DNA of 33,142 bases from a virus (lineage: Duplodnaviria > Caudoviricetes), in IMG/VR virus record IMGVR_UViG_3300025381_000061, positions 1 to 33,142 of that record; one strand, given 5' to 3'. Position numbers and translations under genes: made by a program. Position 1 is the stretch's first letter. Every line of letters begins with the position of its first letter. The notes below the pieces were generated by a model, which was given only the letters and a program-made list of their open reading frames with translations, had not been told where the DNA came from and searched no databases. Below are positions 2,044-25,238 of the stretch, piece by piece.

Positions 2044-2052
2044 CACTCATCC

Positions 2053-2790
2053 TTATCTGAAGCTTGACACAGCGTAACCGGTACGCTGATCCGGTGCGAA
2101 GCTGGTCGGTGCATCTTCCACGTCCCAGTCCTCGAGCATCATGCGGAATTGATTGGCACGACGCTCACACCGGTCCATGATAGCCTGTGGCTGACCAGTT
2201 GCCAACTCATCCGCGAGACCCCAGCGCAGACCCATAGCCCACTCAGTCGGGAAAGCCATGTCGTCAGTCAAACTGACCATGTTGGCCACTTGGGTCTGCG
2301 TGACAAGGTGAGCCTGGCCGGTGGCGGCGTTGGCGTCAGGAATCAGCCAGAACGAGACCTGCAACTGGTACTGCTGCTTGTTGACGAAGTACGAGTTAAG
2401 CTGGCCCTGCTGGTTGACCTGGGACAAGGTGACCCAGTCATGCCATGATAATGGGATCAGGGGACGGCGCACTTGGGTCTGATCAAGGTAGTAAGCCTCG
2501 ATGATCCGGGTGGGCTTGGTCAAATAGCCCGTGCTGACGCTGCCGTTGGGGTAGGTCGGGGTGTAGGTGGCTTGGCCAGGGATCAATGTGATGGCGATGT
2601 CTTCAATCAACCAGAGCTTGAGCCCCTGCGTCTGCCACAAGTTGGCTACGTCATTCATGCGAGTCAGCCCATCGGCGTATTGTTCGCTCGTGGGCTGGTC
2701 GCCGTCTTGAATGAGCCCGGCGTCTTTGTACGCCATGCGGATGATCCGCTGGGCCGTGAGGTAGTTGGTTTGTGGGGTAGGGGTGCTCAT
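2053..2790 (-). CDS. Head-tail adaptor (P22 gp4-like)
   Basis: TAQRIIRMAYKDAG...GLTRMNDVANLWQTQG and FPTEWAMGLRWGLADEL motifs; start reassigned to ATG 2790, which overlaps the upstream stop. Confidence 0.75.
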   Translation of the reverse strand: MSTPTPQTNYLTAQRIIRMAYKDAGLIQDGDQPTSEQYADGLTRMNDVANLWQTQGLKLWLIEDIAITLIPGQATYTPTYPNGSVSTGYLTKPTRIIEAYYLDQTQVRRPLIPLSWHDWVTLSQVNQQGQLNSYFVNKQQYQLQVSFWLIPDANAATGQAHLVTQTQVANMVSLTDDMAFPTEWAMGLRWGLADELATGQPQAIMDRCERRANQFRMMLEDWDVEDAPTSFAPDQRTGYAVSSFR

Positions 2791-3068
2791 AGTACGACCA
2801 CCTGTGCGTTGACGGGAACTGCTTGGCTGAACGTGATTGTAGTGTCGTTCGTTCGAGTGTAGCTTTGCCCGTAGATCTGGAAGATCCCGTTGATGAACAC
2901 TTGACCCACCACAGTCGAGGGCACAGTGAATACGGTCTGTCCTGAAGTGGCCGTAAAGACTGTAGGAGCGGTAGATCCGCTGATTGCCTGAGTCACTGCG
3001 TTTAGCCACGCAGCTGACACCGGGGGTCCTACAAGGTCAACATACGTAACGTTTAGAGGGTTGCTCAT
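2787..3068 (-). CDS. Small virion adaptor protein (anchor peptide plus one TATxGQTxF...VFING docking-type domain)
   Basis: 93 aa; AAGGA RBS; SAAWLNAV resembles the N-terminus of the 603-aa tailspike. Confidence 0.6.
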   Translation of the reverse strand: MSNPLNVTYVDLVGPPVSAAWLNAVTQAISGSTAPTVFTATSGQTVFTVPSTVVGQVFINGIFQIYGQSYTRTNDTTITFSQAVPVNAQVVVL

Positions 3069-3079
3069 GGTGTTGTCCT

Positions 3080-4612
3080 TTACATTGTTTCCACGGTGAA
3101 ATCATCTAAATACAAGCTGCCACTAAAAGCATACAAATTAAAAGCAATAAAGAAATAATTTGCCCATGACGGTACAACTCTATCCATTCCAGATGATAAC
3201 TGCGTCCAGTCAATAGGTGAACCAGAATTTCCGATTCCAAACGTATCAAAAGTTACTGAATTTCCAATTGACGGGATACCGCTTGACAAAGGCCCGTTAA
3301 CCAAACAAGCTCCAGAGGTCACATAACATTGACCAGATGCAGCAGGAAATTTGTACCAACCAGTAAACGCTGCCCTAGAAAAAGGATTAACTGGTACTAC
3401 TAAAATAAATGAGCCATTTGATGCACCACTTGTTTTAGTGATTTTTAATGACTGCGTCCCACCATGTGAGTATGTAGAACTTATAGCTAATGCTATGTTT
3501 GAACCAGTAAAACGATTTGTAATTGCTGCCGTATCACTATTTATTGACCACCAATCAGCAATGGACGCAGTTTCAAACCCACTATCAGATAACTTATTGT
3601 TGGCAACAGGAGATATTTTGGATGGCAAATATGAAACGCCGTAAGAACGCACTTCAGAAACTTGCACAGTACCATTGCCAGAATCCAAAACATTATTAGT
3701 GTTTTGAAGATTGAACATGAAAGCATCATTGATAACAACAGATGAGGAATCTGTGTTAAAAAAGCCATTTTGTGCTAATGCGCCAACACTTCCATTCTGT
3801 TGCAATCTTCCGCCAAACATCGACAATGTTGAATTGTTAGACAGACTAGCAACAACATTTCCCGAGCCAGCATCATTACATTCCCACCAAGTGCTATGCA
3901 GTTCAGTAACGCTATTGTTTGTCGCAACTAATGATTTAGTGTTGTAATCTAAAGAACAATTTGTTAACTGAAGTGCACCTGTATTGCAATTGTTGGAAAT
4001 ACCAAGCACATTGTCATAGATAGCACAATTTACAAATGATATGCGTTCACCATAATTTGAGCCACCAGAAATAATGTATACACCAATTGCACATTGCCCA
4101 ATGTTTACATTGATGTAAGACTGAATATATCCACCACTATAAATAGTAATTCCATAACCAAAGCCGTACACAATGCAGTTCATTACTGAAATATGTGCAG
4201 TATTTGCTTTTAAACCAACAGTTGTCGTTCCTGCCGCTGCACCACCGCCAGCTTTGCCATTTCCTAGCAAAATAAGACCATCAATTTTTTGTGCAATTGC
4301 ACTTGGTGAAGTAAGATCAGATGGTGTTAAAGTTGATGTATTGGTTAAATTTATAGCAACTTGCGTTCCTGTGATACTACTAAAATCCAATATCGCATTG
4401 TCACCTAGCAAAGACTGATTCCCAAGATTAACAGTTATGCCAGGACTGCAAAGATATGTACCTTGAGGAATGTAAACAGTTTGGTTGGTTGCCAAAGCCG
4501 CACTCAAAGCTGTGTAGTTAGCCGCCGCTGTTCCGCTTGTAGAAAAGCCATAATCAAGGGCATTTACATAAGCACCGTTGATCATTGAATAAGAGACTTT
4601 GGTCAAAGACAT
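3080..4612 (-). CDS. Tailspike / depolymerase: right-handed beta-helix with C-terminal carbohydrate-binding-like domain
   Basis: VNALDYG...TVYIPQGTY pectate-lyase-3-like start, Asn/Gly/Ile ladder, C-terminal SGFET...HGGTQSLKIT...LYLDDF. Confidence 0.85.
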   Translation of the reverse strand: MSLTKVSYSMINGAYVNALDYGFSTSGTAAANYTALSAALATNQTVYIPQGTYLCSPGITVNLGNQSLLGDNAILDFSSITGTQVAINLTNTSTLTPSDLTSPSAIAQKIDGLILLGNGKAGGGAAAGTTTVGLKANTAHISVMNCIVYGFGYGITIYSGGYIQSYINVNIGQCAIGVYIISGGSNYGERISFVNCAIYDNVLGISNNCNTGALQLTNCSLDYNTKSLVATNNSVTELHSTWWECNDAGSGNVVASLSNNSTLSMFGGRLQQNGSVGALAQNGFFNTDSSSVVINDAFMFNLQNTNNVLDSGNGTVQVSEVRSYGVSYLPSKISPVANNKLSDSGFETASIADWWSINSDTAAITNRFTGSNIALAISSTYSHGGTQSLKITKTSGASNGSFILVVPVNPFSRAAFTGWYKFPAASGQCYVTSGACLVNGPLSSGIPSIGNSVTFDTFGIGNSGSPIDWTQLSSGMDRVVPSWANYFFIAFNLYAFSGSLYLDDFTVETM

Positions 4613-4626
4613 AATTGTTCCTTAAA

Positions 4627-4971
4627 TTAAGCAGTTGCCCAAGGCAAAGCAGGTTTAATTACAGTAGGGTTAATTTGAGCAGCTAAGTCAGCATTGATAG
4701 CTGATTCAATAGCTTCTTGATTGACACCATTAGACCAGCACCAGCCAATCACTTGAGCTTTAGTAAGTTGAGCAAAAGGCGTAAAAGAACCATTAACTTC
4801 TGGTTCTGGAAATGTGCAACTACTGTAAATGCTGCTGTTAAATTCTTTATTGTTAACAATTTCAGAACCAGTAGCACGCCATCCAGCGGTCAGAACCACT
4901 TGAGTAAAACCATTGATGGTTTGAGTTGATTGTTCAAGCCAATCAATAGTCCAGTTGATAGTAGCCGCCAC
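4627..4971 (-). CDS. Tail-fibre-associated small protein (possible assembly chaperone)
   Basis: 114 aa, FTPFAQLTKAQVIGW...LPW pattern commonly found downstream of tail fibres; GTG start with GAAAGG RBS. Confidence 0.65.
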   Translation of the reverse strand: MAATINWTIDWLEQSTQTINGFTQVVLTAGWRATGSEIVNNKEFNSSIYSSCTFPEPEVNGSFTPFAQLTKAQVIGWCWSNGVNQEAIESAINADLAAQINPTVIKPALPWATA

Positions 4972-4989
4972 GATTAACCTTTCAATTGA

Positions 4990-6225
4990 TTAGGGGTGAG
5001 ATGCTTTGTAAGCATCAAATTCTGCTTTAAGTTCTTTGATTGCAGCAACCAAAAGCGGGATTGTGTCGGTATACGACAAACTTAAAGTACCAATTTTATC
5101 TTCGTTCACTTTAATTGCTTCTGGCAAAACTGCATTGACATCTTGTGCAATTAAAAATGGTCTGCGGACACCATCTGCATCAGTTTTGTATTTCCCTATA
5201 ACAGTACGCAGCGTTGAAACTTTGTTAACAGCATTGGTAATAGGTTCAATAATGTCTTTAATTCTTTCATCAGAAAAAGAAGACCAACTGTTGCCGTTTT
5301 GATATAAAACAACACCCGCAGTTCCACCACCAGAATAAACACTTGTATTACCGTTATTGTTTGATATAACAAACTGTTTTCCAGAATCGTTATATGAATT
5401 TATTGCTATTGCGCTTGTTTGACCGCCACCACCAAAAACGGCTGTGGCATTTGCTACGGTATAGACTGTTGCGCTGCCATAGGTCTGTACAACACCAGAA
5501 GAGTTAATAGTAAATCTAAGCGCAGAATTTGCCCAATCATAAATTTGAAAGTTTAAACCTGTTCCTCCTGTTGTAATGTTGTTGCCAATAAGCCAACGGT
5601 TTCCAGATGAGCCTACAAGTTGAATTTGAATGTTGTCGTCAGAACTGTTTGAATTTTGTAGTCTTAATAAACTAGCAGTAGCTCCGCTAGCGTGAATAAG
5701 TGCGCTAGGGCTATTAGTACCGAGGCCTAAATAATTTGCGCTTGTAAGGCGCATACGTTCAGAAAATGATTCAGAACCTTGTGAACCTGTGTATGTATAA
5801 AAAGCAATACCAGTTCCAGATAAGCTGGTTATTGCACCACCACCGCCAGCAGCAGTACCAAATTGAAAACCACCACCAGCAGAATTTACAGCAGAAAATC
5901 CAACAGAGGTTCCGCTAGAGCCTGTTGTTGTACCAACAAGCAATTGGCTTCCCGTAAATTGTAAAACAGACCCCGTAGCAAGCGAACTTGTAGAGTTTGC
6001 ATAAACTACACCACCAGAAGTAAAGCTGGTCAATCCTGTACCGCCATTAGCACCAGAAAGAGGTGTAGTTGTCAAAGACAATGACGCTGCACTTACAGCT
6101 CGACCAGCCGTTAAGTTAGCTACGCTAACGCTATCAGTTACACCAGACTGATTGATTGGCACAATTTCACTACCCGACAATGGAGTAGTGGCTGACGATA
6201 ACGCTGATATTTTGGTGTTAGCCAT
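4990..6225 (-). CDS. Tail fibre with C-terminal intramolecular chaperone (peptidase S74)
   Basis: Gly/Ser/Thr-rich body, ERMRLTS..LGLGTNSP repeat, SDERIK cleavage motif, LIAQDVNAVLPEA...LVAAIKELK. Confidence 0.9.
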   Translation of the reverse strand: MANTKISALSSATTPLSGSEIVPINQSGVTDSVSVANLTAGRAVSAASLSLTTTPLSGANGGTGLTSFTSGGVVYANSTSSLATGSVLQFTGSQLLVGTTTGSSGTSVGFSAVNSAGGGFQFGTAAGGGGAITSLSGTGIAFYTYTGSQGSESFSERMRLTSANYLGLGTNSPSALIHASGATASLLRLQNSNSSDDNIQIQLVGSSGNRWLIGNNITTGGTGLNFQIYDWANSALRFTINSSGVVQTYGSATVYTVANATAVFGGGGQTSAIAINSYNDSGKQFVISNNNGNTSVYSGGGTAGVVLYQNGNSWSSFSDERIKDIIEPITNAVNKVSTLRTVIGKYKTDADGVRRPFLIAQDVNAVLPEAIKVNEDKIGTLSLSYTDTIPLLVAAIKELKAEFDAYKASHP

Positions 6226-8036
6226 TATTGTGCCGCCAAGTAGCTGCCAGAAATGTAAAACTTAGATGTTGAGCCTATGTTGCTGTTAGTGATGGACGAT
6301 TGCGTTCCACCTGTATCAGTAACCAAAGCAATTGAGCTGCTATTGTCATTGATAAACCAACCAAGCACACCCGTGTATGTGCAGTTAATAGCTTGGACAG
6401 GGCCAGTTGCTCCATACACACCAGTTGCAACAGATGCAGCATCAGGCATACTTCCTAAATTAACTGATACCGAACCTGTACCACTAACAGAACCATTCAA
6501 TTGAATTGTTATGTCAAAGAAAATTCGTTTGCCAACTCGGGTATAAAAACCTTCTTGAATGTTATACGCTGACTGTACTGTGCTACCAACTGATATGGTT
6601 GGGGTAAACGAGCCTGTAATTCCGTAAATACTATCGACATTGCCAATTGTTTGTGCGGTTACTGAGTTTGCATTTCCAAGAAAAATTGAACCATACACCG
6701 CTTGGTTGTTTGATACTACATTGGTGTTTGGTGCATATATAGCATAGCCATTAGTAATGCCTGAAGTTTGGTCAATGTAATTGTTTGAAATCAAATTTGA
6801 GCTGTAACTAACAAGCATTTGGTGAACACCACTTGCCGTGTTAGAAGCATTGCAACCATATATGTAATTGTTAGAGATTACAGAGTTGTTGTAGTCCAAA
6901 GCCATGCCTGATTGCTGGCAGTTTCTAGCATTGTTTCCAACAAATTGAACAAACGAACCATCAGCATAAAAGCCTGTACCATGATTGCCATAAGTCATGT
7001 TGCCAATGACTTGATGACGTGCATCAATAGTTCCAGTATGAGGATAGTCCGAACTTAAATCAAACCCATCGTAATACTGAAACATAGTTGTATTGCCAAT
7101 GAACTGCATGTGATAGCAACGGGCATCTACGCCAGCAGTCGTACCTTGGTAGGTTTTGATGCCCGATTCACCGCAATAAGAAATAATGTTGCCTTGGGCT
7201 AAACCATCAAAGTTTCTGGCAAACGTGATACCTGAATAGCTTGCGTAAGTAATGTTGTTGTTGATCGCAGCGTTGCGCTCGCCTTGCTGATTGTTAATGT
7301 TCCAAAAAACAATACCACCAACATCAGCAGCACCCCCTTGGAATGTGCAATCTCGAACTGTTGAGTAAGTTGCATCATGGATGCTAATAGTTACAAACAA
7401 ACCATAAATGCGACTTACATTAATGTTTGTTGCATTGCCGCCAAAATAAATTACAGGGCCGATTGACGTATAAGTAGGTGTCGGAGAAAGATCATTGTCA
7501 TTTACCGTTGGTTGATACCCTGCATGACTACCAGCACTTGACGTATACGGTGTTGGATTAGATGCCCAAGTTGTTGTATTACGGCTAATGATTGAGGGCC
7601 ATGTAATGCTTTGCAAATATAAGTTATCAATGCTTGAGTTATTTCCAGAAGTTACATTGATAACAGTTGAATCATTTTTAATGATAGATTCAGCGCCAAC
7701 CCCACGCCAAACCACGGTTCCTGTGTAGGTAACTGAAGAAAGCATTTTGTAAGTGCCAGCAGGGAAGAACACGGGTTTACCCGTATTGGTAGCAGCTTGA
7801 ATAGCTGAAGTGCTATCGCTTAAACCTGTAGGGTCAGCGCCAAAATCCAAAACACTTACAGACTCTTGCAACTTAGCTTGAACCGTAGTGGTTACTGCGC
7901 CTGTGCCGCCTTCGTTGTACTGAATGCCTGCTGCGGCAAGCGGTGTGGGGAAGTTGCCGTTGTAAACGGCGTCGTTGACGTCGTTCAGCCAGGACGAAGC
8001 GATGATGGTTCCGCTGTTGAAAACTGTTGAGCTCAT
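6225..8036 (-). CDS. Tailspike / depolymerase (beta-helix) with N-terminal virion anchor
   Basis: TVQAKLQESVSVLDFGADPTG.SDSTSAIQAA...VFFPAGTY; beta-helix repeats; C-terminal YTRVGKRIFF fibre-tip-like domain. Confidence 0.88.
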   Translation of the reverse strand: MSSTVFNSGTIIASSWLNDVNDAVYNGNFPTPLAAAGIQYNEGGTGAVTTTVQAKLQESVSVLDFGADPTGLSDSTSAIQAATNTGKPVFFPAGTYKMLSSVTYTGTVVWRGVGAESIIKNDSTVINVTSGNNSSIDNLYLQSITWPSIISRNTTTWASNPTPYTSSAGSHAGYQPTVNDNDLSPTPTYTSIGPVIYFGGNATNINVSRIYGLFVTISIHDATYSTVRDCTFQGGAADVGGIVFWNINNQQGERNAAINNNITYASYSGITFARNFDGLAQGNIISYCGESGIKTYQGTTAGVDARCYHMQFIGNTTMFQYYDGFDLSSDYPHTGTIDARHQVIGNMTYGNHGTGFYADGSFVQFVGNNARNCQQSGMALDYNNSVISNNYIYGCNASNTASGVHQMLVSYSSNLISNNYIDQTSGITNGYAIYAPNTNVVSNNQAVYGSIFLGNANSVTAQTIGNVDSIYGITGSFTPTISVGSTVQSAYNIQEGFYTRVGKRIFFDITIQLNGSVSGTGSVSVNLGSMPDAASVATGVYGATGPVQAINCTYTGVLGWFINDNSSSIALVTDTGGTQSSITNSNIGSTSKFYISGSYLAAQ

Positions 8037-8452
8037 GGTTGGTATCCTACTGTGGCGCAGTCAGCAGAACCGTAGTCTGCTGTACCCCAAGCGCCTTGTA
8101 AAGTGCAAAATGACGGGTATGTGCCTTGCGGCCCCGGAACGTATTGAAAATCTTTACCGGCGATCATACAGCCTGGATAGGCCAGGCCAGGCATCGCAGA
8201 GATGCCCTGCATCGTGCACACCAGCACGAATGCGTCGCTCTGAGGCTGTGCCCAAGGCACAGTCTGATTGTCGGGCAGGCCGCGGACAAAGTCCTGTGGC
8301 TGGCGCTCTTCCCAGTGCTCTGGACAAACGTAGTACCCCTGCCAGTACTTCTTGAGCTGCGAAGCCTTCCGCTTCGCGCCACACTCGAAGCAGACGGCGT
8401 TGTAATCCCCTAGACGGAGATAATCAGCTTCACCACGGCCAGGAGCTGCCAC
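8033..8452 (-). CDS. Cys-rich (CxxC) hypothetical virion-module protein
   Basis: CFECG...YVCPEHWEERQPQ; coupled to both neighbours. Confidence 0.7.
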   Translation of the reverse strand: MAAPGRGEADYLRLGDYNAVCFECGAKRKASQLKKYWQGYYVCPEHWEERQPQDFVRGLPDNQTVPWAQPQSDAFVLVCTMQGISAMPGLAYPGCMIAGKDFQYVPGPQGTYPSFCTLQGAWGTADYGSADCATVGYQP

Positions 8453-8453
8453 A

Positions 8454-8798
8454 TTACACGCCCATTAAGCAGGTCGTAGCAGCGGTCGCAGCGGTCGTTC
8501 TGCACCGCACGTAACGCCAAGCGCTACCACCCGAGTTTTCAACAATTGCGCCACTGCCTGCGCCAGCAAGAGTGATCGTGCTCGAGGCAGTCGTGCCGGT
8601 GATAGGACACCAGTTGGTGTTGTCAAGCGAGCCTTCGATCACTGCGGTGGCCGCAGCAGCCGAAATCAGCTGGAACACGCAGATGATCGAGTCTTTGTAA
8701 ATGCTGTTGCCGGTAGCAGGTGCGCTGATGCTCAGATCACCGCTGCTGTCCATGGGCATGTGTCGGGGCGATGTGCCGCCAATGAGAGTTACGTCCAT
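8454..8798 (-). CDS. Hypothetical structural protein
   Basis: 114 aa; IEGSLDNTNW...WRYVR pattern; AAGGA RBS. Confidence 0.7.
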   Translation of the reverse strand: MDVTLIGGTSPRHMPMDSSGDLSISAPATGNSIYKDSIICVFQLISAAAATAVIEGSLDNTNWCPITGTTASSTITLAGAGSGAIVENSGGSAWRYVRCRTTAATAATTCLMGV

Positions 8799-8807
8799 GA
8801 TGATTCC

Positions 8808-9149
8808 TTAAATTCCCATTTTTGTGCAATCAAGCACCAAGTGAAACGCACCTTCGCCTGACACCTCGAGCCACAGCGATTGATTCTGTGAGCTCGGCTG
8901 CAAGCTGTCGAACTGATAATAGTTCAACAGGCCACGACCCTCGACCGGCAAGACCAGACCGTCATCAGTCCAACCAAACCGGACCTTGACGCCGCTTTCG
9001 CAAGCGTACTGGATCTGATCCAGCTTGATACCGGTTGGGTTGTCCTGGAGGTGCTCACGGCCAAGGATCACGGTTTGTTCAACCGGACCTTCGCCCCACA
9101 CCATCATCACGGTGTTTTTCTTGCCGTCACGAGTGATCTTTGTTTGCAC
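8808..9149 (-). CDS. Hypothetical structural protein
   Basis: 113 aa, in-operon spacing, GTG start. Confidence 0.65.
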   Translation of the reverse strand: MQTKITRDGKKNTVMMVWGEGPVEQTVILGREHLQDNPTGIKLDQIQYACESGVKVRFGWTDDGLVLPVEGRGLLNYYQFDSLQPSSQNQSLWLEVSGEGAFHLVLDCTKMGI

Positions 9150-12990: not shown

Positions 12991-13302
12991 TTATTTCTCC
13001 CCAGTGATCTTGCAGAAAATATCGCGGTCATTGACCAACCGATAGCGCTTGCCATCGAGTGGGCCGGTGGCCATGTAGCCTGACATTTTGGCAATCAATA
13101 CCTTGTCGCCAGGGGCTGCACGTGCGGGTTCGTCAGGCCAACAGGCGGGGCCTATCTCCACGACGATGGCGCGTTGTTCAACCATCAAAGTTCGGTCTTG
13201 AACGAAGTCAGGGATCTCGATCAACGAGTCCTTTTTCTCCGGCTCATAGTGTTTGATCAACACTGCACGGCCCAAAGGGGCCAAACCACTTTCATTCTGC
13301 AT
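12991..13302 (-). CDS. groES: GroES-like co-chaperonin (Cpn10)
   Basis: LAPLGRAVLIK...IEIPD...AIVVEIGP...PGDKVL..K.SG...GKRYRLVNDRDIFC matches the Cpn10 pattern. Confidence 0.8.
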   Translation of the reverse strand: MQNESGLAPLGRAVLIKHYEPEKKDSLIEIPDFVQDRTLMVEQRAIVVEIGPACWPDEPARAAPGDKVLIAKMSGYMATGPLDGKRYRLVNDRDIFCKITGEK

Positions 13303-15547: not shown

Positions 15548-17017
15548 TCAGTAGCCGGTCACTTTAGAGCGGCCCATTGTACGTTTAGGACTGTTGCTGC
15601 GCGCTTCAATCTCTTCGTCATCGTAAAAATCTTCTTCCTCGAGTTCGGACATGGTCTCGAACCCCTTGACGAGGAGCGCGGTGGAGTCGAACTGGTCATC
15701 CTGCGCGGCGTCGCTAAAACCCGTGAAGCGCAGCAGCTCGTTCTCGTAGGTCGGATACCAGGACGCATCTTTGTCGTACTTCACGCCGCCAGCGCGCATG
15801 TGTTTCTGGAGTGGGCGGCCGCGAGTCGCTTTGTCGCGGGTGGGCAGAATCGGCTGGCAGTTGATCCAGCGGTCGCGCACCTGCATCTCTTTGTAGAGGG
15901 TCGGGGCCACGCTTTTCCAGATCACGCCGTCTTCAACAAAGAATACGGCCGGGTTCCAGCGCTTTTGGATCGAGAACATCTCGTTGATCCACTCGAGTGT
16001 GTCCCACCGGCCCAGGCGCTGGTCGACCACATGGATGAAGTTCTCCACGCACTTGCCGCCCACGGTGAACGAGGTGCGGTTGGCCTTGTCTTTCTTCGAC
16101 ACGGCGAAGTCACACCCGACGGCGTAAATCTTTTCGCGGTCGTGGTCGCTCTCGTCCATGGGCAAGAAGTCGTCGCTCCGCAGGTACGCCTCGGAGTTGT
16201 CCATCGGGTCGTTTAGGTACTCCTGCGAGTAGCCGCCGGCGTCGCCCTGCTCGATGTAGTCTTGCCGGATGGACTTGAGCCGCTCCTCAGAAAACTGTTC
16301 CGGCCACAGGATCTCGGTGAAGTCGTCGAACCCGTTGTGGGCCTTGTACAGCTTGGAGGTCCAGGTCTTGGCCTTCATGAGCTTGGCCAGCAACGAGTCC
16401 TCGTGCAGGATCGTGCCGTGCACACGGACGACACCACCGCGGCGACGGGTGGGGAGCACGGCGCGCAGGAACCAGCGTTGAAAGCGGTCGCGCGAATCCT
16501 TGTTCTCGATTTGGGCGTCGTCTTCCAAGTCATCGCAGACGATCAGGCCGGGCCGCTTGCCGTTCCACTTCAGACCCCGCATCTTTTGTCCCGAGCCCTT
16601 GGCGATGATCCGGCACTGGTGGCCGTCTTGGAACTCGACAACGATGTCGGTCTTCATGTCGACCGTGAACGCCTTGATCTTAAACTGAGCGATCAGGTCG
16701 TCGTTCTCCCTGAGTTCTTTGGCGATGTCAGCCAAGTGGCTCATGGCCAGGTCTTCTGTGGCCGACACGATGACGATGAAGTCCTGCTCGCGAAACAGGG
16801 TCACGGCCAGCACGTAGTCGTGGGTGAGCGCGGTGCTCTTGGCATGACTACGGGGAGCGGCCACGGCGCAGAGCTCCGAGTCACCGCAGTACATGCCCCA
16901 GCACTCCCGGTGGAACTCAGGAGTCGGCTGGGGGTTGTCGTACATGGGTGACAGGAACGTGCCAGCGAACGCCTCGATCAGTGGGGCGCTCAGCTTGACA
17001 CGGTTCACTGCTGACAT
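15548..17017 (-). CDS. terL: Terminase large subunit
   Basis: Walker A APRSHAKST, Walker B IVCDDLED, GTILHEDS, nuclease GCDFA and DDQFDS. Confidence 0.95.
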   Translation of the reverse strand: MSAVNRVKLSAPLIEAFAGTFLSPMYDNPQPTPEFHRECWGMYCGDSELCAVAAPRSHAKSTALTHDYVLAVTLFREQDFIVIVSATEDLAMSHLADIAKELRENDDLIAQFKIKAFTVDMKTDIVVEFQDGHQCRIIAKGSGQKMRGLKWNGKRPGLIVCDDLEDDAQIENKDSRDRFQRWFLRAVLPTRRRGGVVRVHGTILHEDSLLAKLMKAKTWTSKLYKAHNGFDDFTEILWPEQFSEERLKSIRQDYIEQGDAGGYSQEYLNDPMDNSEAYLRSDDFLPMDESDHDREKIYAVGCDFAVSKKDKANRTSFTVGGKCVENFIHVVDQRLGRWDTLEWINEMFSIQKRWNPAVFFVEDGVIWKSVAPTLYKEMQVRDRWINCQPILPTRDKATRGRPLQKHMRAGGVKYDKDASWYPTYENELLRFTGFSDAAQDDQFDSTALLVKGFETMSELEEEDFYDDEEIEARSNSPKRTMGRSKVTGY

Positions 17018-18144: not shown

Positions 18145-18381
18145 TTACCCCAGTGCCATACGGTGGTGTTGACGAACAGCATCGGCGTCGGTGGGCTCGT
18201 ACTGCTGGTTCATCGGGTTGACGTTCATGATGTTCGACGACTTACCGGCCTGGTACGCCATACCTGCCTTATCAGCGGGGTAGCGCACAGCTGGGCCCTG
18301 TGGGGGCTTGGTCGTCTTTGCCGGTTTTTGGTTGGCCATGCCCTTGACGGGTGTTGCCATCATCTTACTTTGCTTCGACAT
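18145..18381 (-). CDS. Small basic hypothetical protein
   Basis: 78 aa (start could be 18363); in-operon position. Confidence 0.6.
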   Translation of the reverse strand: MSKQSKMMATPVKGMANQKPAKTTKPPQGPAVRYPADKAGMAYQAGKSSNIMNVNPMNQQYEPTDADAVRQHHRMALG

Positions 18382-18943
18382 CGATAGCTCCTGAGTTATC
18401 TCGTGGACGGAGCGCCACGAGTCGCTTAGCGAGATTATCTAGGTGATTGCTCTCGATGACAACTGCCGCCGCTTTGGCCTGGCCCATCCCCATCGCTTTA
18501 GTCGAAACCTCCAGCGCCTTAAGCACCAAATTGTCCGACACCTGATCTGCCGATTTACTGAGCTTCTCGTGGATGACGTCCAGGGAGCGGTTGACTACCG
18601 CCTGGAGTCTCTCCTCCGTGGACGCAATGATGATCGGGTTGATCACCTCGTCGCGGCGCTTCTCGAGCAGTCGCTTAAACGCAACACTGTTGATGATCAG
18701 GTTGGTCCACGAGGGGCTAAGCCCATACTGCTCACCCAGCTCCGCAGTAGTCATTTCAGGACGAGCAAGGATCGTGTCCACCATCGCTCGGTGAACATTG
18801 TTCAAAACCTTGGGACCTTTGGGAGGGACTGGCGCAATCTGCTTCATCGGCAAATCGAGGTCCAGATCCGGCACATTGAATTGTGGCGCAGATAAAAAAT
18901 CCGGCAGGTCCGTGGTCGACTGATTAACTTGGGTGTCTTCCAT
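18365..18943 (-). CDS. Probable terminase small subunit (HTH protein)
   Basis: HTH-like HRAMVDTILARPEMTTAELGEQYGLSPSWTNLIINSVAFK followed by a helical region; first gene of the late operon upstream of TerL. Confidence 0.6.
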   Translation of the reverse strand: MEDTQVNQSTTDLPDFLSAPQFNVPDLDLDLPMKQIAPVPPKGPKVLNNVHRAMVDTILARPEMTTAELGEQYGLSPSWTNLIINSVAFKRLLEKRRDEVINPIIIASTEERLQAVVNRSLDVIHEKLSKSADQVSDNLVLKALEVSTKAMGMGQAKAAAVVIESNHLDNLAKRLVALRPRDNSGAIDVEAK

Positions 18944-18950
18944 GTCCGCG

Positions 18951-18978
18951 AGTTTAGTTCGAGTTTGCTGCTTGTCAA
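18951..18978 (-). promoter_or_regulatory. Putative sigma70-type late-operon promoter, near-leaderless
   Basis: Minus strand TTGACA(18978-18973)-16 bp-TAAACT(18956-18951), 7 bp before ATG 18943. Confidence 0.55.
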
Positions 18979-18995: not shown

Positions 18996-19630
18996 GTGAC
19001 AAATTGACTCACGTTGGGGTGGTTGGCTTTGGGAATTTAGGTATCTGGTGTGTCTGGTGTGTCCCGTGGGTCTCTGTGATCAGGGTTCAAAATTTTGCAA
19101 AAAAATTCACGGGGGTCATATAGATATTTTTGGGAGCCCAGATTTTCCCCCCGCCCCCCGAGAATCCGGGCCGCCGTTATACCGGCCCCCGGGGATCGAA
19201 GCGCGCCGGGCCGCCCGGGATCATGGGGGCCGATTCGGCCGGGACCCCGTGGGGGCCGGGCTCGGTGTAGCGCGTGACATATTGACTCGGACCCCATGAG
19301 CCCATGAGCCCCGGCCGGGTTACCGGATACCGGCCCCACGGTTACGGGATCCCGTGGGTCCGGGGAACCCCAGCCCCCATTTCACCTTGATAGTTTTTCA
19401 CTATTGATCCGAGCAAATTAATAGATCGCTTCAATGATCATAAACCCAGCGGGGCACGATCCCCCGGCCCCATGCGATAGAATAACCCACGGGACCAAGC
19501 GCGCCCCCAGCATGTGACAAATTGACTCCGCGCGTGAACACTTTTATTTTCATTCGAATTAAGATCCCCCGGACACTAAATATATATAGTGAAAAAATAC
19601 ACCGCGCGCGCGGAGTCAATTTGTCACATG
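18996..19630. repeat. Four copies of 15-bp box GTGACAWATTGACTC; the last two form a 24-bp perfect inverted repeat
   Basis: 18996-19010 (+), 19274-19288 (+), 19514-19528 (+), 19613-19627 (-); IR arms 19511-19534 and 19607-19630. Confidence 0.92.
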
Positions 19631-19668
19631 ATCCAATTGTAAAGAATTGTAAAGCACGCACAAACCAA

Positions 19669-19696
19669 TGGACACATGGTCCCGGGGATGTACAAT
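19669..19696 (+). promoter_or_regulatory. Putative early promoter
   Basis: TGGACA-16 bp-TACAAT, preceded by tandem AATTGTAAAG x2 (19635-19654) and followed by hairpin ATGCACCGG/CCGGTGCAT (19704-19727). Confidence 0.55.
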
Positions 19697-19732
19697 GCAA
19701 CACATGCACCGGACAAACCCGGTGCATACTTT

Positions 19733-19759
19733 GTAACCGTAACCCGTAACCGTAAGGAT
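19733..19759 (+). repeat. GTAACC(C) intergenic linker, copy 1
   Basis: GTAACCGTAACCCGTAACCGTAAGGAT, ending in the RBS of the first early gene. Confidence 0.95.
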
Positions 19760-19764
19760 TGAAA

Positions 19765-19878
19765 ATGAGCTTCGATACATTTTGCAAATACACCGCTGGG
19801 GCCGCTTTGGTTTTGCTCGGCTTAACCTTGGTTTTGTCAATCGTGACATTCTCGGCCGCTTTTACTCTGGGGGCTTGA
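19765..19878 (+). CDS. Small membrane peptide (37 aa)
   Basis: MSFDTFCKYTAGAALVLLGLTLVLSIVTFSAAFTLGA; TAAGGA RBS; not in the ORF track. Confidence 0.7.
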   Translation: MSFDTFCKYTAGAALVLLGLTLVLSIVTFSAAFTLGA

Positions 19879-19880
19879 TC

Positions 19881-19979
19881 ATGTACAAAGATTTAACCCT
19901 TGATATCGCTTTAGCTTTGATCATTGCTGCAGTGCTTTGCGTGCTGGCATTGTCCTATTTTGACGTTTTGACCAAGTAA
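19881..19979 (+). CDS. Small membrane peptide (32 aa)
   Basis: MYKDLTLDIALALIIAAVLCVLALSYFDVLTK; GGGGG RBS. Confidence 0.7.
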   Translation: MYKDLTLDIALALIIAAVLCVLALSYFDVLTK

Positions 19980-20002
19980 CCGTAACCCGTAACCGTAAGG
20001 AT
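19976..20002 (+). repeat. GTAACC(C) intergenic linker, copy 2
   Basis: 27/27 identical to 19733-19759; supplies the upstream TAA stop and the downstream RBS. Confidence 0.95.
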
Positions 20003-20007
20003 AAAAA

Positions 20008-20310
20008 ATGAAAAACGATACCCCAGCAATTTTGAGCGCTGCAGTCGATCGCTTAGCCGTTATCAAGGCCACGATCGCCGAATTGAAAACAGAAGAAAAC
20101 AATTTAAAACAATCGTTGATCGATAGCGGGGCCGCTATCGTCGACGGGACTCTACACCGCGCCGCGGTGTCCTATTGTGACGGCCGCACGTCGATCGACT
20201 GGCAAAGTATCGCGGCTAAATTTAACCCCAGCCGTCAATTGATAACGGCCCACACGTCGACGGGGGATCCGTTCTATTCGGTCCGCGTGTCCGCACGTAA
20301 GGGGGCTTGA
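20008..20310 (+). CDS. Early hypothetical protein (N-terminal coiled coil)
   Basis: 100 aa; TAAGGA RBS. Confidence 0.8.
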   Translation: MKNDTPAILSAAVDRLAVIKATIAELKTEENNLKQSLIDSGAAIVDGTLHRAAVSYCDGRTSIDWQSIAAKFNPSRQLITAHTSTGDPFYSVRVSARKGA

Positions 20311-20312
20311 TC

Positions 20313-20594
20313 ATGAAAAAACAATTTAACCCATTTTTTGAGGTTTCGAGCCGATACGGTGCACCAATGGGCCGGCGTGGGGATAACCCGGCGAATTTGG
20401 CCGGTGTAAAGCGTTTACATGCCCGTCACCAAGGCGGGGGCGACGGATACGATAAGGGCGGGGCTTACTGGGGCACGCCGTGTAACGTGTGGGGCGTGTG
20501 GGCTCGGATCGACGGCGAGCCGTGTGTGGTTTATGTACGGGCGAATTCTAGAACGGCCGCTATCGATATGGTCCGCGCGGGGGATGCATCATGA
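20313..20594 (+). CDS. Early hypothetical protein with YGAPMGR / YDKGGAYWG motifs
   Basis: 93 aa; motifs recurrent in phage early proteins; ATG 20313 after GGGGG RBS. Confidence 0.8.
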   Translation: MKKQFNPFFEVSSRYGAPMGRRGDNPANLAGVKRLHARHQGGGDGYDKGGAYWGTPCNVWGVWARIDGEPCVVYVRANSRTAAIDMVRAGDAS

Positions 20595-20932
20595 GAATTT
20601 TGGCCACTAAATTGAGAAACCAATTTTCGAGCGCGTACACCGTAACCTTGAAAAATGTAATTATTAACGGCGACAAACGCGGATGCACCGGGTTTATATC
20701 GCGCGGGGATGCGATCGTGTACGTCAACACCGAGCTATTCGGACCTCAAGGGTACTTGTACCGCACGGCCGAGCACTTGAAAGACTACACGGGCGGACAG
20801 AATCGCTGGGCCCCGGACCTTGAATCATTGGTGAAAAGAATCACGGACCTATTGACGGCCGAGTCAATACGTAAGCGCGCCGGGATCCCGGCGGACAATT
20901 TGATCGTGTACACCGTGGGGGATTCAAAATGA
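20591..20932 (+). CDS. Early hypothetical protein with KDYTGGxN motif
   Basis: 113 aa; ATGA coupling at both ends. Confidence 0.8.
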   Translation: MRILATKLRNQFSSAYTVTLKNVIINGDKRGCTGFISRGDAIVYVNTELFGPQGYLYRTAEHLKDYTGGQNRWAPDLESLVKRITDLLTAESIRKRAGIPADNLIVYTVGDSK

Positions 20933-21609
20933 AATATCATTTCATCCGCGAATCGGGAAACCGAAAAACCGGCCCAATACCGGTTACTTACTCCGAGCGG
21001 GAAACGTGCCCAGAATCGTGCCCTCATTACCGCTCGGATTGTTACGCCGAAGACTATTACACGCGCTTATCATGGGATAAGGTCCCCCAGCGTGGGGGTG
21101 AATTGTCCGCGCTTTGTGAATCCGTGGCCCAGTTACCGGCGGGGCAATTGTGGCGCATGAATGTGGCCGGGGACTTACCCGGCCGCGGTGAATCCGTCGA
21201 TCCCGTGGCACTTGGTCAAATTGTCCGCGCGAATATCGGCCGCCGGGGGTTTACATACACTCACAAAAAATCCGCGGATGCCATAACGTGGGCAAAGCAT
21301 GCGACGGACTGGGGGTTCACCGTGAATTTAAGCGCGGATGATGCCGGCGAAGCGGATATATTAGCGGACCTTAATTCTGGGCCCGTGGTTTGTATTGTGC
21401 CCATGGATACCCCAGAAAAGACACAAACCCCCGGGGGCCGTTCAATCGTGGTTTGTCCCGCACAAACCCGGGACCATGTGACGTGCGAATCGTGTGGGCT
21501 TTGTGCGCGTGCGAATCGGGCCGTTATTGTGGGTTTTCGTGCCCATGGATCCAAAGCGAAACAAACCGATAGTAAAGCGCGCCGAATTATTCCAATTGCC
21601 ACGGCGTAA
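20929..21609 (+). CDS. Cys-rich GP88-like putative Fe-S / radical-SAM-related protein
   Basis: SGNRKTG...TCPESCPHYRSDCYA, WRMNVAGD, GFTYTH, NLSAD, CPAQ...TCESCGLCA...GFRAHG. Confidence 0.65.
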   Translation: MKYHFIRESGNRKTGPIPVTYSERETCPESCPHYRSDCYAEDYYTRLSWDKVPQRGGELSALCESVAQLPAGQLWRMNVAGDLPGRGESVDPVALGQIVRANIGRRGFTYTHKKSADAITWAKHATDWGFTVNLSADDAGEADILADLNSGPVVCIVPMDTPEKTQTPGGRSIVVCPAQTRDHVTCESCGLCARANRAVIVGFRAHGSKAKQTDSKARRIIPIATA

Positions 21610-21631
21610 CCCGTAACCCTTAACCGTAACC
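21605..21631 (+). repeat. GTAACC(C) intergenic linker, degenerate copy 3
   Basis: CGTAACCCGTAACCCTTAACCGTAACC, starting at the stop codon of the upstream gene. Confidence 0.85.
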
Positions 21632-21657
21632 CCCGGCCCATGTGGCCGGGCTTTTTT
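21632..21657 (+). terminator. Intrinsic terminator in the early operon
   Basis: CCCGGCC-CATGT-GGCCGGG-C-TTTTTT. Confidence 0.85.
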
Positions 21658-21675
21658 GATCCTTGAAAGTGAAAA

Positions 21676-21873
21676 ATGAAATACACCGAAGCCGAATATA
21701 TAAACGCGGGGTATCGATACGAGCGGGCCCCCAATAGGATCACGGGCCAAGCCGTGGCCGCTTTGATCCGGACCATGCTTGAATCCGAATCGATCCCGGA
21801 CCGGGGCGAAGCTCGCCGATTAATTGAGCTGGGCCGGGCCGAAGCGCGCCCACGCGCCCACGCGCACGCATGA
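21676..21873 (+). CDS. Early hypothetical protein
   Basis: 65 aa, MKYTEAEYINAGYRYERA...ARRLIELGRAEAR. Confidence 0.7.
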   Translation: MKYTEAEYINAGYRYERAPNRITGQAVAALIRTMLESESIPDRGEARRLIELGRAEARPRAHAHA

Positions 21874-21877
21874 GCCC

Positions 21878-22066
21878 ATGAGCACCCCCGCCCCCACGCG
21901 CCCACGCGCACCCGTGGCCATTGGGCCCCCTACGCGTGCGCCCACGCCTACGCGCACCCCCGCGCCTACGCCTGCCCAGGTCTGGCCGTTCCCACGGGCG
22001 ATCCTGCCCACGCGCCCCGGCGCGCCACTGTTTAACCCTGACAACTTCGAAGAGGCCCCACTATGA
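21878..22066 (+). CDS. Pro-rich hypothetical protein (62 aa)
   Basis: MSTPAPTRPRAP...VWPFP...FNPDNFEEAPL; ATGA coupling to the next gene; composition partly dictated by the motif array. Confidence 0.5.
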   Translation: MSTPAPTRPRAPVAIGPPTRAPTPTRTPAPTPAQVWPFPRAILPTRPGAPLFNPDNFEEAPL

Positions 22067-22407
22067 CCCTGCCCGATTGGATGAACCCACCCACGCCCAC
22101 GCGTGCGCCTACGCGCGCCCCTGAGCCCCCACGCGCCTACGCGTCCACGCGCACCCCTGAGCGCAAGCGCATACCGCTCCACGCGGATCCAGGCACGCCC
22201 AAACGCGTGTCGGACCTACGCGCACGCATGGGCCTGTCACTCAACAAAATGTCGCGCCTGATGGGCGTGGAGAATGCCACCTATCGCAAATGGGAAACCG
22301 GCGAACGCATCCCCACGGCCGCGGCTACGCGCCTGATCGACATCATGGAGCAGATCGAGACCCACGCCCCCGCGCTCCACGCGCGCCTGATCGCGGAGGT
22401 GATGTGA
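22063..22407 (+). CDS. Xre/Cro-type HTH DNA-binding protein
   Basis: LRARMGLSLNKMSRLMGVENATYRKWETGERIP. Confidence 0.85.
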   Translation: MTLPDWMNPPTPTRAPTRAPEPPRAYASTRTPERKRIPLHADPGTPKRVSDLRARMGLSLNKMSRLMGVENATYRKWETGERIPTAAATRLIDIMEQIETHAPALHARLIAEVM

Positions 22408-22547
22408 TGATCGACGACGACTACGACTTCGACCTCGAGGAGCTGCGCCAGGAGTCGCGCGCAGCCAGGTGGCTACACCGCCGGCTGCTCGACCACCCGG
22501 ACCCACAGGACCCAGACTACCCTGAGCTGGAGGATGACGAGGAATGA
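22407..22547 (+). CDS. Small acidic protein (46 aa)
   Basis: MIDDDYDFDLEELRQE...HPDPQDPDYPELEDDEE; GGAGGT RBS; TGATG coupling. Confidence 0.7.
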   Translation: MIDDDYDFDLEELRQESRAARWLHRRLLDHPDPQDPDYPELEDDEE

Positions 22548-22891
22548 CCCCGATCTCACTCGCCGATCGCCTACGCGCGCTCCTACGCGCGCACCCTGAA
22601 GGGCTGCGGGTCCTAGCGATCCAAGGTCATCTGGGGGGCGACTACCGAACCTCGATCGCCAACTGCTTGCGAAGGATGCCCGACGCCTACGTGAAGGACT
22701 GGGTCTGGCAAAGGACTGGCTGGGCTGCCGTGTGGGCGGTGGTCTACGACAAACCCAAGCCACAGGGCAGGCCGATCACTCGTCCTGATCCTCCAGCCCC
22801 TTCACGCGCCTACGCGCATGGGGGGCCAGCCGGTAAATCTCGTCAAGCTGGCGCTGTTTGGCCGCCAGCACTGCCGCGCGGTGGCCCTTGA
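22544..22891 (+). CDS. Hypothetical protein, possible winged-helix
   Basis: LRALLRAHPEGL...LRRMPDAYVKDW...AVWAVV; ATGA coupling; 3' end overlaps the primase gene convergently. Confidence 0.6.
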   Translation: MTPISLADRLRALLRAHPEGLRVLAIQGHLGGDYRTSIANCLRRMPDAYVKDWVWQRTGWAAVWAVVYDKPKPQGRPITRPDPPAPSRAYAHGGPAGKSRQAGAVWPPALPRGGP

Positions 22892-25238
22892 ACATGGTCA
22901 AGAGCTTGGGGTTGATGGCCCACTGGGCGAAGTGCTGATTCTCTTTCGTGCCGTCGTCCACGCGGATCACCCAGGTGGCCTGCTCTAGCAGCGCCATCGC
23001 GCCGATCACCATCTGGTCGGCCTGCCACTGGCTCACGCCCTCCACCTGCCTACGCGCGGACCTCTTGATCTCGCCCAGGGTCAGGGTTGACTTGTCAGCG
23101 TGCTGGATCACATAGTCGGCCACCCACGCGTCAAACGAGTTGCCGCCCACCTCGCCCAGGGAGTAGCGCAGCGCGGGGATCACATAGTCCTTCACCACGC
23201 GGATCACGCGCTCCACGATCTCAGGCCCGACCACAATGTCGAATGGCCGCTCCATGAGGTGGAACAGGATGATCAGCCTGCCGGTCGTGCCCTCGATCTT
23301 GCCAAACGCGGTCATGAACGAGTCAGGCGACGACAGGATGCGCTCGTCCTTCTTTGCGGTCTCATACCAGCGCTGGAACTCGCGGAACACCTTGTGGGCA
23401 GCCGGAGAGAGCTTGTAGGTCTGGGCCGGTAACGCGTAAACCAGGCGCAAAGTCTGCTCCCACTGGGCCTTGTTGGTCATGAACTCGGGGATGGGCTCAC
23501 CCAGTCGCGTCTTATCACCTCGCAGGATCGCAGGTATGAACCGCTGGAGCAGGCCATCACTGGTCAGGCTGGCCAGATTGTCGCGGTACACTTTGGGCTG
23601 GATGTTGCCGTAAATCGAGACAGCCAGGTTCTCGCAGTGGATCGACCCGGACCCCACCCGGTCCATGTCGTATTTTTCTGACTCGTAGCTGACAACCCAG
23701 GCTGAGCGATCCTCGCCGCTGGTCTTGTCGGTGAGCTTCTTCACCCAGCTGTTCATTTCGTCCAGGTAGCACAGCAGGCCCCGAGGTCTCTCAGCAGCCT
23801 GGCGCACGAGCTTCTGGGATGTTACGTCATTGACAACGATACGCACCGGCGTCGGGGCTGGCGGGAGATCGTTGACGACCGGTGCAGCCGATGGGTCCAG
23901 CTGACCCTCTGGTGTCTTATGGTACTCAGTGAAAGCCTTGTGCGCGGCCTCGTGGGCTGCCTCTTTGCCTTCCCAATCGAGCATTTCCTTCTTGTATCTT
24001 GGCGCGTCTTCTGATTCAATATCACGTAGCGCCGACAGCATGGGTCTGGAGCCTGGACTCTTTTTGTCTGCTGGATCCCCAATCGTCATGAGCCAGAGCA
24101 CCGGCGGGACCTGAAAGCCTGGCATCAACTCAAGTCGGATCTCAGCGTCGACAACCCCGCAGACAGCCGACAAGCCTGCGAAGAGCGGGACCAAAGGGTC
24201 ACAGCCCACACTTTCCGATACCTGCTGAGCCCTGGTGGCCAGCACAGATGGCCACAGCGACAGATCGATCTCAGGAGCCGGGGGCTTGAGCCCGGACATC
24301 ACCTCGAGCGGTGCGTCTGGCGACTCGATGGACTTGAACAGTTCTGATGCGTCTGGCATGGGCCTGCTCCATCCGTGCTGCTTGGCAATGTGAAAAAGTG
24401 TCCCGAGCTTGACACTGTTGACCTTGTCGGTCTTGAAGCTGTTCCACTGTGCAATGAGGGTGCGCTCTCCAGGGTACTTGGGCGAGGGCATCGACCACTC
24501 GTTCCAAAGCGAGAGCGCCTGATCGAGTTGATTGGTCTGCGACCCGGCCCAGTTGAGCGCCATGCCGACATGCACCCACTCTTCCCTTGAACAGTCTGGA
24601 TTGATGGCCTCCATGGCCTGGCGAATCTCTTCCCATGACGCATTGATGGCGTCCCCAGTGGTCAGGTTTCGCACCTTGTCCGAGTCAAGGAGCTTTTGCC
24701 ACAGATCGAGCAGAAACTGAGGGATGATCGGCAGCCGGGTCCAGTGACCCCGGCCTGCCCAGCGGTACGGTTGCAGGGTCTCAGGGTGAATGGATGGGGG
24801 CAGGACATCCTGCACCGTGAGACCGTTGGCCGTGCTGGAGCGCAGCTCGTAGACCGTCTGGCCATTGACCAAGACCTTCTTTGATGGCAGCGACAGACCA
24901 AAGGGCATGGAGTAGAGCAGCTTGCCGTGGCCAGCCTTGCCCGACTCGATGATAACGGCGTCCGGTGCGTCGTAGAGGGTCTTAAGATCGATGCCCTGGG
25001 CGATTGTTGCGTCCCAGTTGTCGATGTCAAAAGCCATCGTGCCGCTGTAAGCATGGGCAAGCCCGATGCCAAAGCCCGGCGGCAGCTGGGTCTGGTCCTT
25101 AAGTGCTTGGGTCTTTTGGTTCCAGCCTGCGGTGCGGGGTCCCTTGGTCCCTTGGGGGATCGGTACAAGTGACCAACCGTGGCGAATATAAGCATCGACT
25201 GATGCGGGGTGCTGTTGAACTGACTGTACAGGTAGCAT
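22776..25238 (-). CDS. Primase-polymerase / PriCT-2 / DUF3987 (YfjI-like) helicase fusion
   Basis: YIRHGWSLVPI..GTKGP...AFDID (Prim-Pol); REEWVHVGMAL...GTLFHIAKQHGW (PriCT-2); GDPADKKSP, LLCYLDEM, GNIQP, DGLLQRF (DUF3987); ATG 25238 preferred over TTG 25283. Confidence 0.85.
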   Translation of the reverse strand: MLPVQSVQQHPASVDAYIRHGWSLVPIPQGTKGPRTAGWNQKTQALKDQTQLPPGFGIGLAHAYSGTMAFDIDNWDATIAQGIDLKTLYDAPDAVIIESGKAGHGKLLYSMPFGLSLPSKKVLVNGQTVYELRSSTANGLTVQDVLPPSIHPETLQPYRWAGRGHWTRLPIIPQFLLDLWQKLLDSDKVRNLTTGDAINASWEEIRQAMEAINPDCSREEWVHVGMALNWAGSQTNQLDQALSLWNEWSMPSPKYPGERTLIAQWNSFKTDKVNSVKLGTLFHIAKQHGWSRPMPDASELFKSIESPDAPLEVMSGLKPPAPEIDLSLWPSVLATRAQQVSESVGCDPLVPLFAGLSAVCGVVDAEIRLELMPGFQVPPVLWLMTIGDPADKKSPGSRPMLSALRDIESEDAPRYKKEMLDWEGKEAAHEAAHKAFTEYHKTPEGQLDPSAAPVVNDLPPAPTPVRIVVNDVTSQKLVRQAAERPRGLLCYLDEMNSWVKKLTDKTSGEDRSAWVVSYESEKYDMDRVGSGSIHCENLAVSIYGNIQPKVYRDNLASLTSDGLLQRFIPAILRGDKTRLGEPIPEFMTNKAQWEQTLRLVYALPAQTYKLSPAAHKVFREFQRWYETAKKDERILSSPDSFMTAFGKIEGTTGRLIILFHLMERPFDIVVGPEIVERVIRVVKDYVIPALRYSLGEVGGNSFDAWVADYVIQHADKSTLTLGEIKRSARRQVEGVSQWQADQMVIGAMALLEQATWVIRVDDGTKENQHFAQWAINPKLLTMFKGHRAAVLAAKQRQLDEIYRLAPHARRRVKGLEDQDE

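Follow-up and report, generated by a model that had tools for sequence, protein, structure and literature searches.

Does a stretch of phage DNA that has lost a set of short words mark the end of the genome that enters the cell first? We address this question in IMG/VR record IMGVR_UViG_3300025381_000061, a linear virus record of 33 kb with an estimated completeness of 76%, whose 33,142 nucleotides are referred to as the window, and in which about 2.9 kb of early genes and leader DNA beside the putative gene for the terminase small subunit (terS) form a block purged of CAG-containing words. The original prediction, made from the letters of the window, read this block as a leading region selected against asymmetric or CCWGG-type restriction sites until its products protect the rest of the genome. 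We find that the missing words are a local dialect and that the block also carries a deficit of A and T at spacings of 6–9 bases, which recurs in relatives. We consider it likely that the block is the first-entering end of a linear genome, under selection from those restriction systems of its hosts that methylate adenine, of Type I and also Type IIB-like.

The word purge

In the window, CAGG/CCTG is absent from 19081 to 21971, a gap of 2,890 nt (next largest 908), and TCAG/CTGA from 19080 to 22038 (2,958 nt; next largest 739). The block retains 25 CAG/CTG trinucleotides, 17 of them as CCCAG/CTGGG, and its seven early open reading frames (ORFs) encode Leu with TTG 23, TTA 12, CTT 8, and CTG 3 times and Gln with CAA 13 and CAG 3 times, whereas CTG makes up 41% of Leu codons and CAG 64% of Gln codons elsewhere. 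Noncoding DNA is purged as well (a 680-nt leader holds 0 CAGG and 0 TCAG). The depletion exceeds dinucleotide shuffles of the block (n = 200; CAGG mean 13.4, minimum 4; TCAG mean 7.5, minimum 2; none of either observed) and codon-frequency recoding of the ORFs (n = 300; CAG mean 42.9, minimum 28, vs. 21 observed; CAGG mean 9.5, minimum 2, vs. 0), so that the purge holds up as it was first described. The trinucleotide CAG by itself is only marginally low under the dinucleotide null (25 vs. 39; minimum 24 of 200).

The wording of the prediction in terms of CAG alone proves too narrow, as AG/CT as a whole has 0.44 times its expected count, and further low words are CAAC (3), CCTC (3), GGAA (5), TCCA (6), GAAC (7), and CATC (9). 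Within the S-W-W-S class the palindromes GATC (27 sites) and CATG (22) are kept, while CAAC (3), CTAC (6), GAAC (7), CATC (9), and GAAG (9) fall. Of 512 five-mer classes, 86 are missing, compared with a shuffle mean of 29 (maximum 42; n = 100) and with 16–56 in stretches of equal length elsewhere in the window. Both strands carry the bias alike (AG 82, CT 76; CAG 14, CTG 11), and the best segment under a model trained on the block is 19086–21965; because the model used the block itself, it fixes the edges and not the significance.

The block is not AT-rich (GC 0.55) and palindromes are abundant in it (97 six-mer sites vs. 45 at uniform base use), as predicted, but most of this excess reflects greater use of words made up wholly of G/C or wholly of A/T. 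Relative to a maximal Markov model, six-mer palindromes stand at 0.93 within the block but at 0.66 outside it and, pooled over relatives, at 0.76 in blocks and 0.53 elsewhere; the effect specific to the block is relaxed palindrome avoidance. The observed/expected ratio of 178 palindromic sites is 1.53 in the block, where palindromes are not under-represented in the manner of orthodox Type II avoidance.

A gapped deficit with the geometry of Type I sites

Bipartite motifs are the most depleted enzyme class in the block (0.40), and we therefore tallied pairs of A and T by the distance between them. In a set of 49 bipartite motifs, there are 38 matches against a permuted mean of 84, and none of 200 permutations is as low. 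For the pairs, A-N(d)-T stands at 0.67, 0.74, 0.69, and 0.82 at d = 6, 7, 8, and 9, and at 0.95–1.13 at all other d from 2 to 15. Expressed as an index, the counts at d = 6–8 relative to those at d = 10–18 (loci are compared at a threshold of 0.85; the mirror index uses T-N-A), the block has a value of 0.70 (304 vs. 436; z = −5.7). All 600 sequences drawn from Markov-2 and Markov-4 nulls lie above it (300 each; 1.00 ± 0.05, minima 0.85 and 0.87), and codon permutation gives a mean of 0.84, with 0 of 500 permutations as low as 0.695. Table 1 of PMC3874165 states a methyl interval for 33 of 38 Type I enzymes, and in all 33 it is 6–9 bases, with A first and T second. The A..T spacing depleted in the block equals the distance between the adenines that Type I enzymes methylate, a direct Type I signature, and the deficit is limited to A..T at 6–9 in that order (mirror index 0.85 in the block, median 0.96 in relatives).

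Compared with the rest of the genome, restriction-type sites are depleted for this generic Type I geometry and for bipartite motifs. Far-cutting (IIG/III-like contiguous) motifs have 32 matches in the block against a permuted mean of 46.5, which is not significant (25 of 200 as low), and 287 contiguous motifs named from methylomes stand at 0.86 against a permuted 0.83, those ending in AG at 0.47 and those ending in AC at 0.94.

The deficit recurs in relatives with other missing words

The block encodes a protein of the family DUF7227, and we profiled the loci of its relatives, taking the best 80 of 156 matches and reducing them by k-mer overlap to 50, one of which is the phage's own contig. 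The index is below 0.85 in 48 of the 50 (47/49 without the phage's own contig), compared with 0/44 flanks and, for the mirror, 3/50. It does not track AG depletion across loci (r = −0.08), and 43/50 loci remain below 0.85 when the DUF7227 gene is left out (control tiles, 3/156). Pooled over 49 loci, A..T alone of 16 pairings dips clearly, while A..C, G..T, A..A, and T..T are raised at the same spacings. The pooled dip sets in at the putative terS start (26 loci), sharply so across loci whose terL genes are unrelated, and fades about 1 kb past the DUF7227 stop. Noncoding leaders of 18 loci have an index of 0.72 (mirror 0.92).

Relatives with an equivalent depleted block lacking other words, which the prediction had called for, were found (L088, L243, L244, and L247). 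In L088, whose terL is 84% identical, the block lies at the equivalent place, holds 61 CAGG/CCTG, and has almost no AGAC or AACT; 24 missing 5-mers are common to the two blocks. CAG depletion is a dialect of the window's lineage only, and CAG is not supported as the principle of the purge; nor is CCWGG, since CCAGG/CCTGG are among the most enriched 5-mers in the relatives' pooled blocks (3.3-fold). Behind one left edge, modules differ even among contigs whose putative terS is identical at 189–191 residues: in L247 the module is rich in AG (1.34), with GCAC, ACGA, and CGTA missing, and those of L243 and L244 differ again. Small genes common to the window and L243 are recoded, with another codon at 17 of 29 identical residues compared with 8 of 191 in terS. 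Alternative leading modules stand behind near-identical terS regions in L247, L243, L244, L241, and L089, and the set of missing words differs from module to module. Very acidic small proteins, which are candidate DNA mimics, are encoded in L244 and L089, and HNH-type genes inside sister modules (L088 4811–5377; L247; L244) carry the word bias of their respective module.

Among cultured phages, Caulobacter phage S2B (L104), which has annotated terminal repeats, has its best segment 48–2856 nt from the early end (0.66), and the first-step DNA of T5 (L250 1–9100) has an index of 0.90 (z = −4.5; A-N7/8-T dip), compared with 0.98 in the rest of T5. A deficit of A-N7/8-T is seen at the early ends of both (S2B last 2.9 kb; T5 1–9100). 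Of the predicted selection against asymmetric sites beside the putative terS, the Type I part is supported by the A-N6-9-T dip and by the dips at the annotated leading ends of S2B and T5, and the CAG/CCWGG principle is not.

Is the block the end that enters first?

DNA packaged last is ejected first. Packaging would start at the block's left edge and run through terS and terL, so the block would be packaged last and ejected first, its genes being read away from the end. Hosts presumably vary their Type I specificities, so no single word would be the target; selection would lower the common geometry together with contiguous words particular to each lineage (CAG, GAG, CAAC, and GGAA in the window), and these words may represent half-sites, or sites of IIG/III/BREX type, in the hosts of the lineage concerned. 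An early product, for which the radical-SAM-like DUF7227 protein is the best candidate, might then disable restriction that depends on S-adenosylmethionine (SAM), a step that is the weakest of the series and, taken alone, doubtful; later DNA would then need no purge. Palindromic enzymes that do not need SAM would not be disabled, which fits the avoidance of six-mer palindromes across the rest of the genome. Indirect support comes from contigs L074 and L076 of a sister lineage, which differ in downstream sequence but start at an identical homologous base at the left edge of a block; two other contigs read through the element at which they start. In about 650 IMG/VR stretches (L106–L225 among them), across unrelated terL genes, a look-alike of the A-tract and C-tract motif at the window's left block edge is found upstream of terS.

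Several observations weigh against a restriction-selected leading end. Genome ends were judged from assembled contigs, and although L230 ends at 19134 and L231 at 19152, many others run through the edge, giving no fixed contig end; ends near the family motif are scattered (12/80 within 600 nt). A P22-type head-closure match among the window's proteins raises headful packaging, under which no leading-region avoidance would be expected (PMC12455610). The 50 DUF7227 loci share ancestry and are not independent samples, and in an unbiased sample of the family, 60 loci for which the boundary motif was the sole criterion, the dip is weak (14 below 0.85; terS sides 0/50), with medians of 0.87 with the DUF7227 gene and 0.89 without it; in that sample a deep dip goes with the window-type helix-turn-helix (HTH)/Prim-Pol lineage (6/7 vs. 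8/53 others). L089 dips to 0.66 in its early genes, among which no DUF7227-like gene was noticed. The first 3 kb of T7, LUZ24, phiKMV, CB5A, CRP-345, P-SSP7, and Che12 have no clear dip (0.89–0.97), nor was a clear block found in PaP1. In the block itself the mirror index is also low (0.85), and the DUF7227 protein sequence accounts for part of the deficit (recoded 0.79–0.81 vs. 0.655 observed). When the spacers of bipartite motifs are lengthened, the block (38 vs. 44–79) is not separated from a control stretch (73 vs. 90–129). The motifs scored are those of known enzymes, which may differ from the host's own.

Some of these points would also suit Type I-like restriction acting on a block that is not the injected end and owes its exposure to something else, for instance to being an origin region or the point where a headful series begins: the phage has no fixed contig end and a P22-type head-closure match, a repeat array and a Prim-Pol gene lie at the right edge of the block, and seven end-oriented cultured phages are without a clear dip. 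Against such exposure stand the sharp onset at the putative terS start despite unrelated terL genes, the S2B dip that starts 48 nt from an annotated end, and the two contigs that start at one base, and we regard it as rather unlikely. We give somewhat less credence still to an origin without restriction enzymes, in which mutation is locally biased or early mRNA is under selection for its structure or RNase sites. The strong dinucleotide shift (AG 0.44), the repeat-rich leader, and the mirror index in the block would agree with it, but the bias is strand-symmetric, the dip is not reproduced by Markov nulls, noncoding leaders dip too, and selection against hairpins would reduce T..A and C..G to the same extent, both of which stand at 0.96–1.05 when pooled. 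That the block is a recently imported module keeping its donor's genome-wide bias is very improbable, for although modules with differing vocabularies are swapped among phages with near-identical putative terS, the A..T dip reaches the flanks in 0/44 loci and is not genome-wide in four complete or near-complete genomes profiled whole, nonhomologous modules dip at the equivalent place, and orthologous small genes are recoded per module.

The DUF7227 protein

The assignment to DUF7227 is secure over the full model (E = 3.7e-76; 256 bits vs. a curated cutoff of 27), and the nearest other Atlas clusters are GP88 (PF17338; 0.96). The predicted fold resembles partial barrels, and C27-C31-C38 and C176/186/189/192 are invariant. 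The radical SAM motif CxxxCxxC was not found after the first strand, where the invariant motif is Cx3Cx6C (C27, C31, C38); the radical SAM family includes noncanonical Cys motifs. The protein is weakly radical-SAM-like. DUF7227 has 4,086 relatives; it is gene 1 of P-SSP7, in the place where T7 has 0.3, and its genes lie near the ends of S2B and of cluster A/M mycobacteriophages. The family libraries searched give no function for GP88/DUF7227/phrog_2554, our literature search found no mention of the name DUF7227, and no block protein has an anti-restriction match in PHROG, Pfam, or NCBIfam. A role as a protector against restriction is a tentative proposal.

Features of the block and its surroundings

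Table 1. Features in and around the purged block (window coordinates)
Feature	Position	Strand	Basis or remark
Putative terS, 192 aa	18365..18943	−	Head of operon leading to terL; composition normal
Sigma-70-like promoter match facing putative terS	18951..18978	−	Consensus match only; 3 found vs. 2.4 expected
Noncoding leader	19085..19764	.	Purged as genes are
Word-purged early block	19086..21965	.	Word counts and segment model; A-N6-8-T deficit spans 19161–22160
A-tract then C-tract at left edge of block; candidate packaging/terminus signal	19090..19160	+	Common to L088/L089
Promoter match in leader	19669..19696		Consensus match
Two 46-nt direct repeats (GTAACC units) before early genes; candidate cassette junctions	19733..20021	+	Third, partial copy at 21605
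37-aa hydrophobic ORF	19765..19878	+	Start chosen by eye
32-aa hydrophobic ORF	19881..19979	+	Recoded orthologues in sister modules
100-aa protein	20008..20310	+	Matches viral clusters without family name
93-aa protein, no family	20313..20594	+	Orthologue in L244
113-aa protein, no family	20591..20932	+	
DUF7227 (PF23872)/phrog_2554 protein, GP88-like; candidate anti-restriction gene	20929..21609	+	
Terminator-like hairpin 3′ of DUF7227	21632..21660	+	
65-aa ORF, last gene within block	21676..21873	+	
17 same-strand CCYACGCG copies from right edge of block	21849..23130	+	Lineage-specific
HTH_3 regulator, first gene beyond block	22063..22407	+	

The leader carries GTGACAAATTGACTC-type copies at 19274, 19513, and 19613, with another at 18996, and a perfect 24-bp inverted pair lies within the element (19511–19534/19607–19630). 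The repeated element is kept in L243 and partly in L089 and is a candidate operator. Strain variants L234 and L242 lack about 19769–19901/19921. The CCYACGCG array runs into the HTH and Prim-Pol genes, has 15 copies in L088, and is absent as an array from 49 other loci; it possibly represents origin iterons or an operator.

The minus strand of the window carries the structural genes and terL (15548–17017), and to the right of the block lie small early-type genes, the HTH regulator, the Prim-Pol gene, and an exonuclease/single-stranded DNA-binding protein/polymerase/SNF2 module. Window DNA is present in freshwater metagenome runs, and a 43.8-kb contig encodes terL and DUF7227 proteins identical to those of the window. 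The closest GenBank phage, the metagenome-assembled DSL-LC05 (PMC10611076), has the same layout, with an annotated terS in the place of our putative one; family-library searches found no family match or name for the product of 18365–18943. A GroES-like co-chaperonin gene (12991–13302) adjoins the portal gene, and DSL-LC05 has one too. The tail fibre and tail-spike region (3080–8036) is AT-rich (38–46% GC) and nearly without GATC, CCGG, GGCC, and CGCG; it is probably imported, with a bias opposite to that of the block. The longer contig of the phage has a 434-aa PurD-like ATP-grasp gene (L094 2041–3345), below cutoff, with a large virion-type gene on one side and the lysis genes on the other.

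Relation to known systems and meaning

Avoidance of sites in a leading region is already known from T5 and Murciavirus. In T5/BF23 (Tequintavirus), sites are open to Type I and II systems only if they lie in first-injected DNA (PMC10644984), and the first 9.1 kb of T5 have a weak A-N7/8-T dip; T5 is, however, unrelated, its leading region measures about 10 kb compared with 2.9 kb for the window's block, its dip is far shallower (0.90 vs. 0.70), and two-step injection with a stop signal is a T5 feature. Murciavirus is sensitive to the Mme2I Type I system only if a site lies in its leading region, the most variable part of its genome (PMC12455610); that case concerns one motif and one host, whereas the window has a motif-independent geometric deficit and whole-module recoding, and CB5A itself reaches only 0.92. 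The genome-scale survey PMC6286503 reports avoidance of orthodox Type II sites and none of Type I or IIG sites. Outside the block, the genomes studied here likewise avoid six-mer palindromes (0.53 pooled), but they show a strong Type I avoidance of local extent, and palindromes are less avoided inside the block (0.76 pooled). A later paper remarks that the location of sites had not been examined (PMC12455610), and a preprint on plasmid leading regions describes no systematic depletion of Type II targets (10.1101/2025.04.03.647016). Literature searches, supplements excluded, found neither the spacing deficit nor a generic purge of Type I sites that leaves palindromes in place.

Removal of SAM is an anti-restriction route, as by the T3 SAM lyase (PMC12707154). 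Like T7 0.3 (Ocr) and the T3 lyase gene, the DUF7227 gene would be an anti-restriction gene at a leading end, and it is the first gene of P-SSP7; no sequence or fold match of its protein to either was found, its model resembling partial barrels, and the left end of T7 is without a dip (0.95).

Because the statistic is motif-free and the local avoidance strong, the question of Type I avoidance becomes testable across all phage genomes, and S2B is a ready model phage. The A-N6-9-T dip could show which end of an uncultured phage genome is injected and how that genome is packaged, each module's missing words are a prediction of the respective host's methylome, and DUF7227, a common and unstudied family, is nominated as an anti-restriction candidate. 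More speculatively, and with odds that we would put well short of even, lake phages may purge their leading end of generic Type I geometry and not of particular motifs, swap whole modules recoded per host methylome, and have in the radical-SAM-like DUF7227/GP88 protein a "gene 0.3" of a third kind, which would drain SAM against Type I, IIG, III, and BREX systems; with nothing but sequence, the dip would then locate the injected end of uncultured phages.

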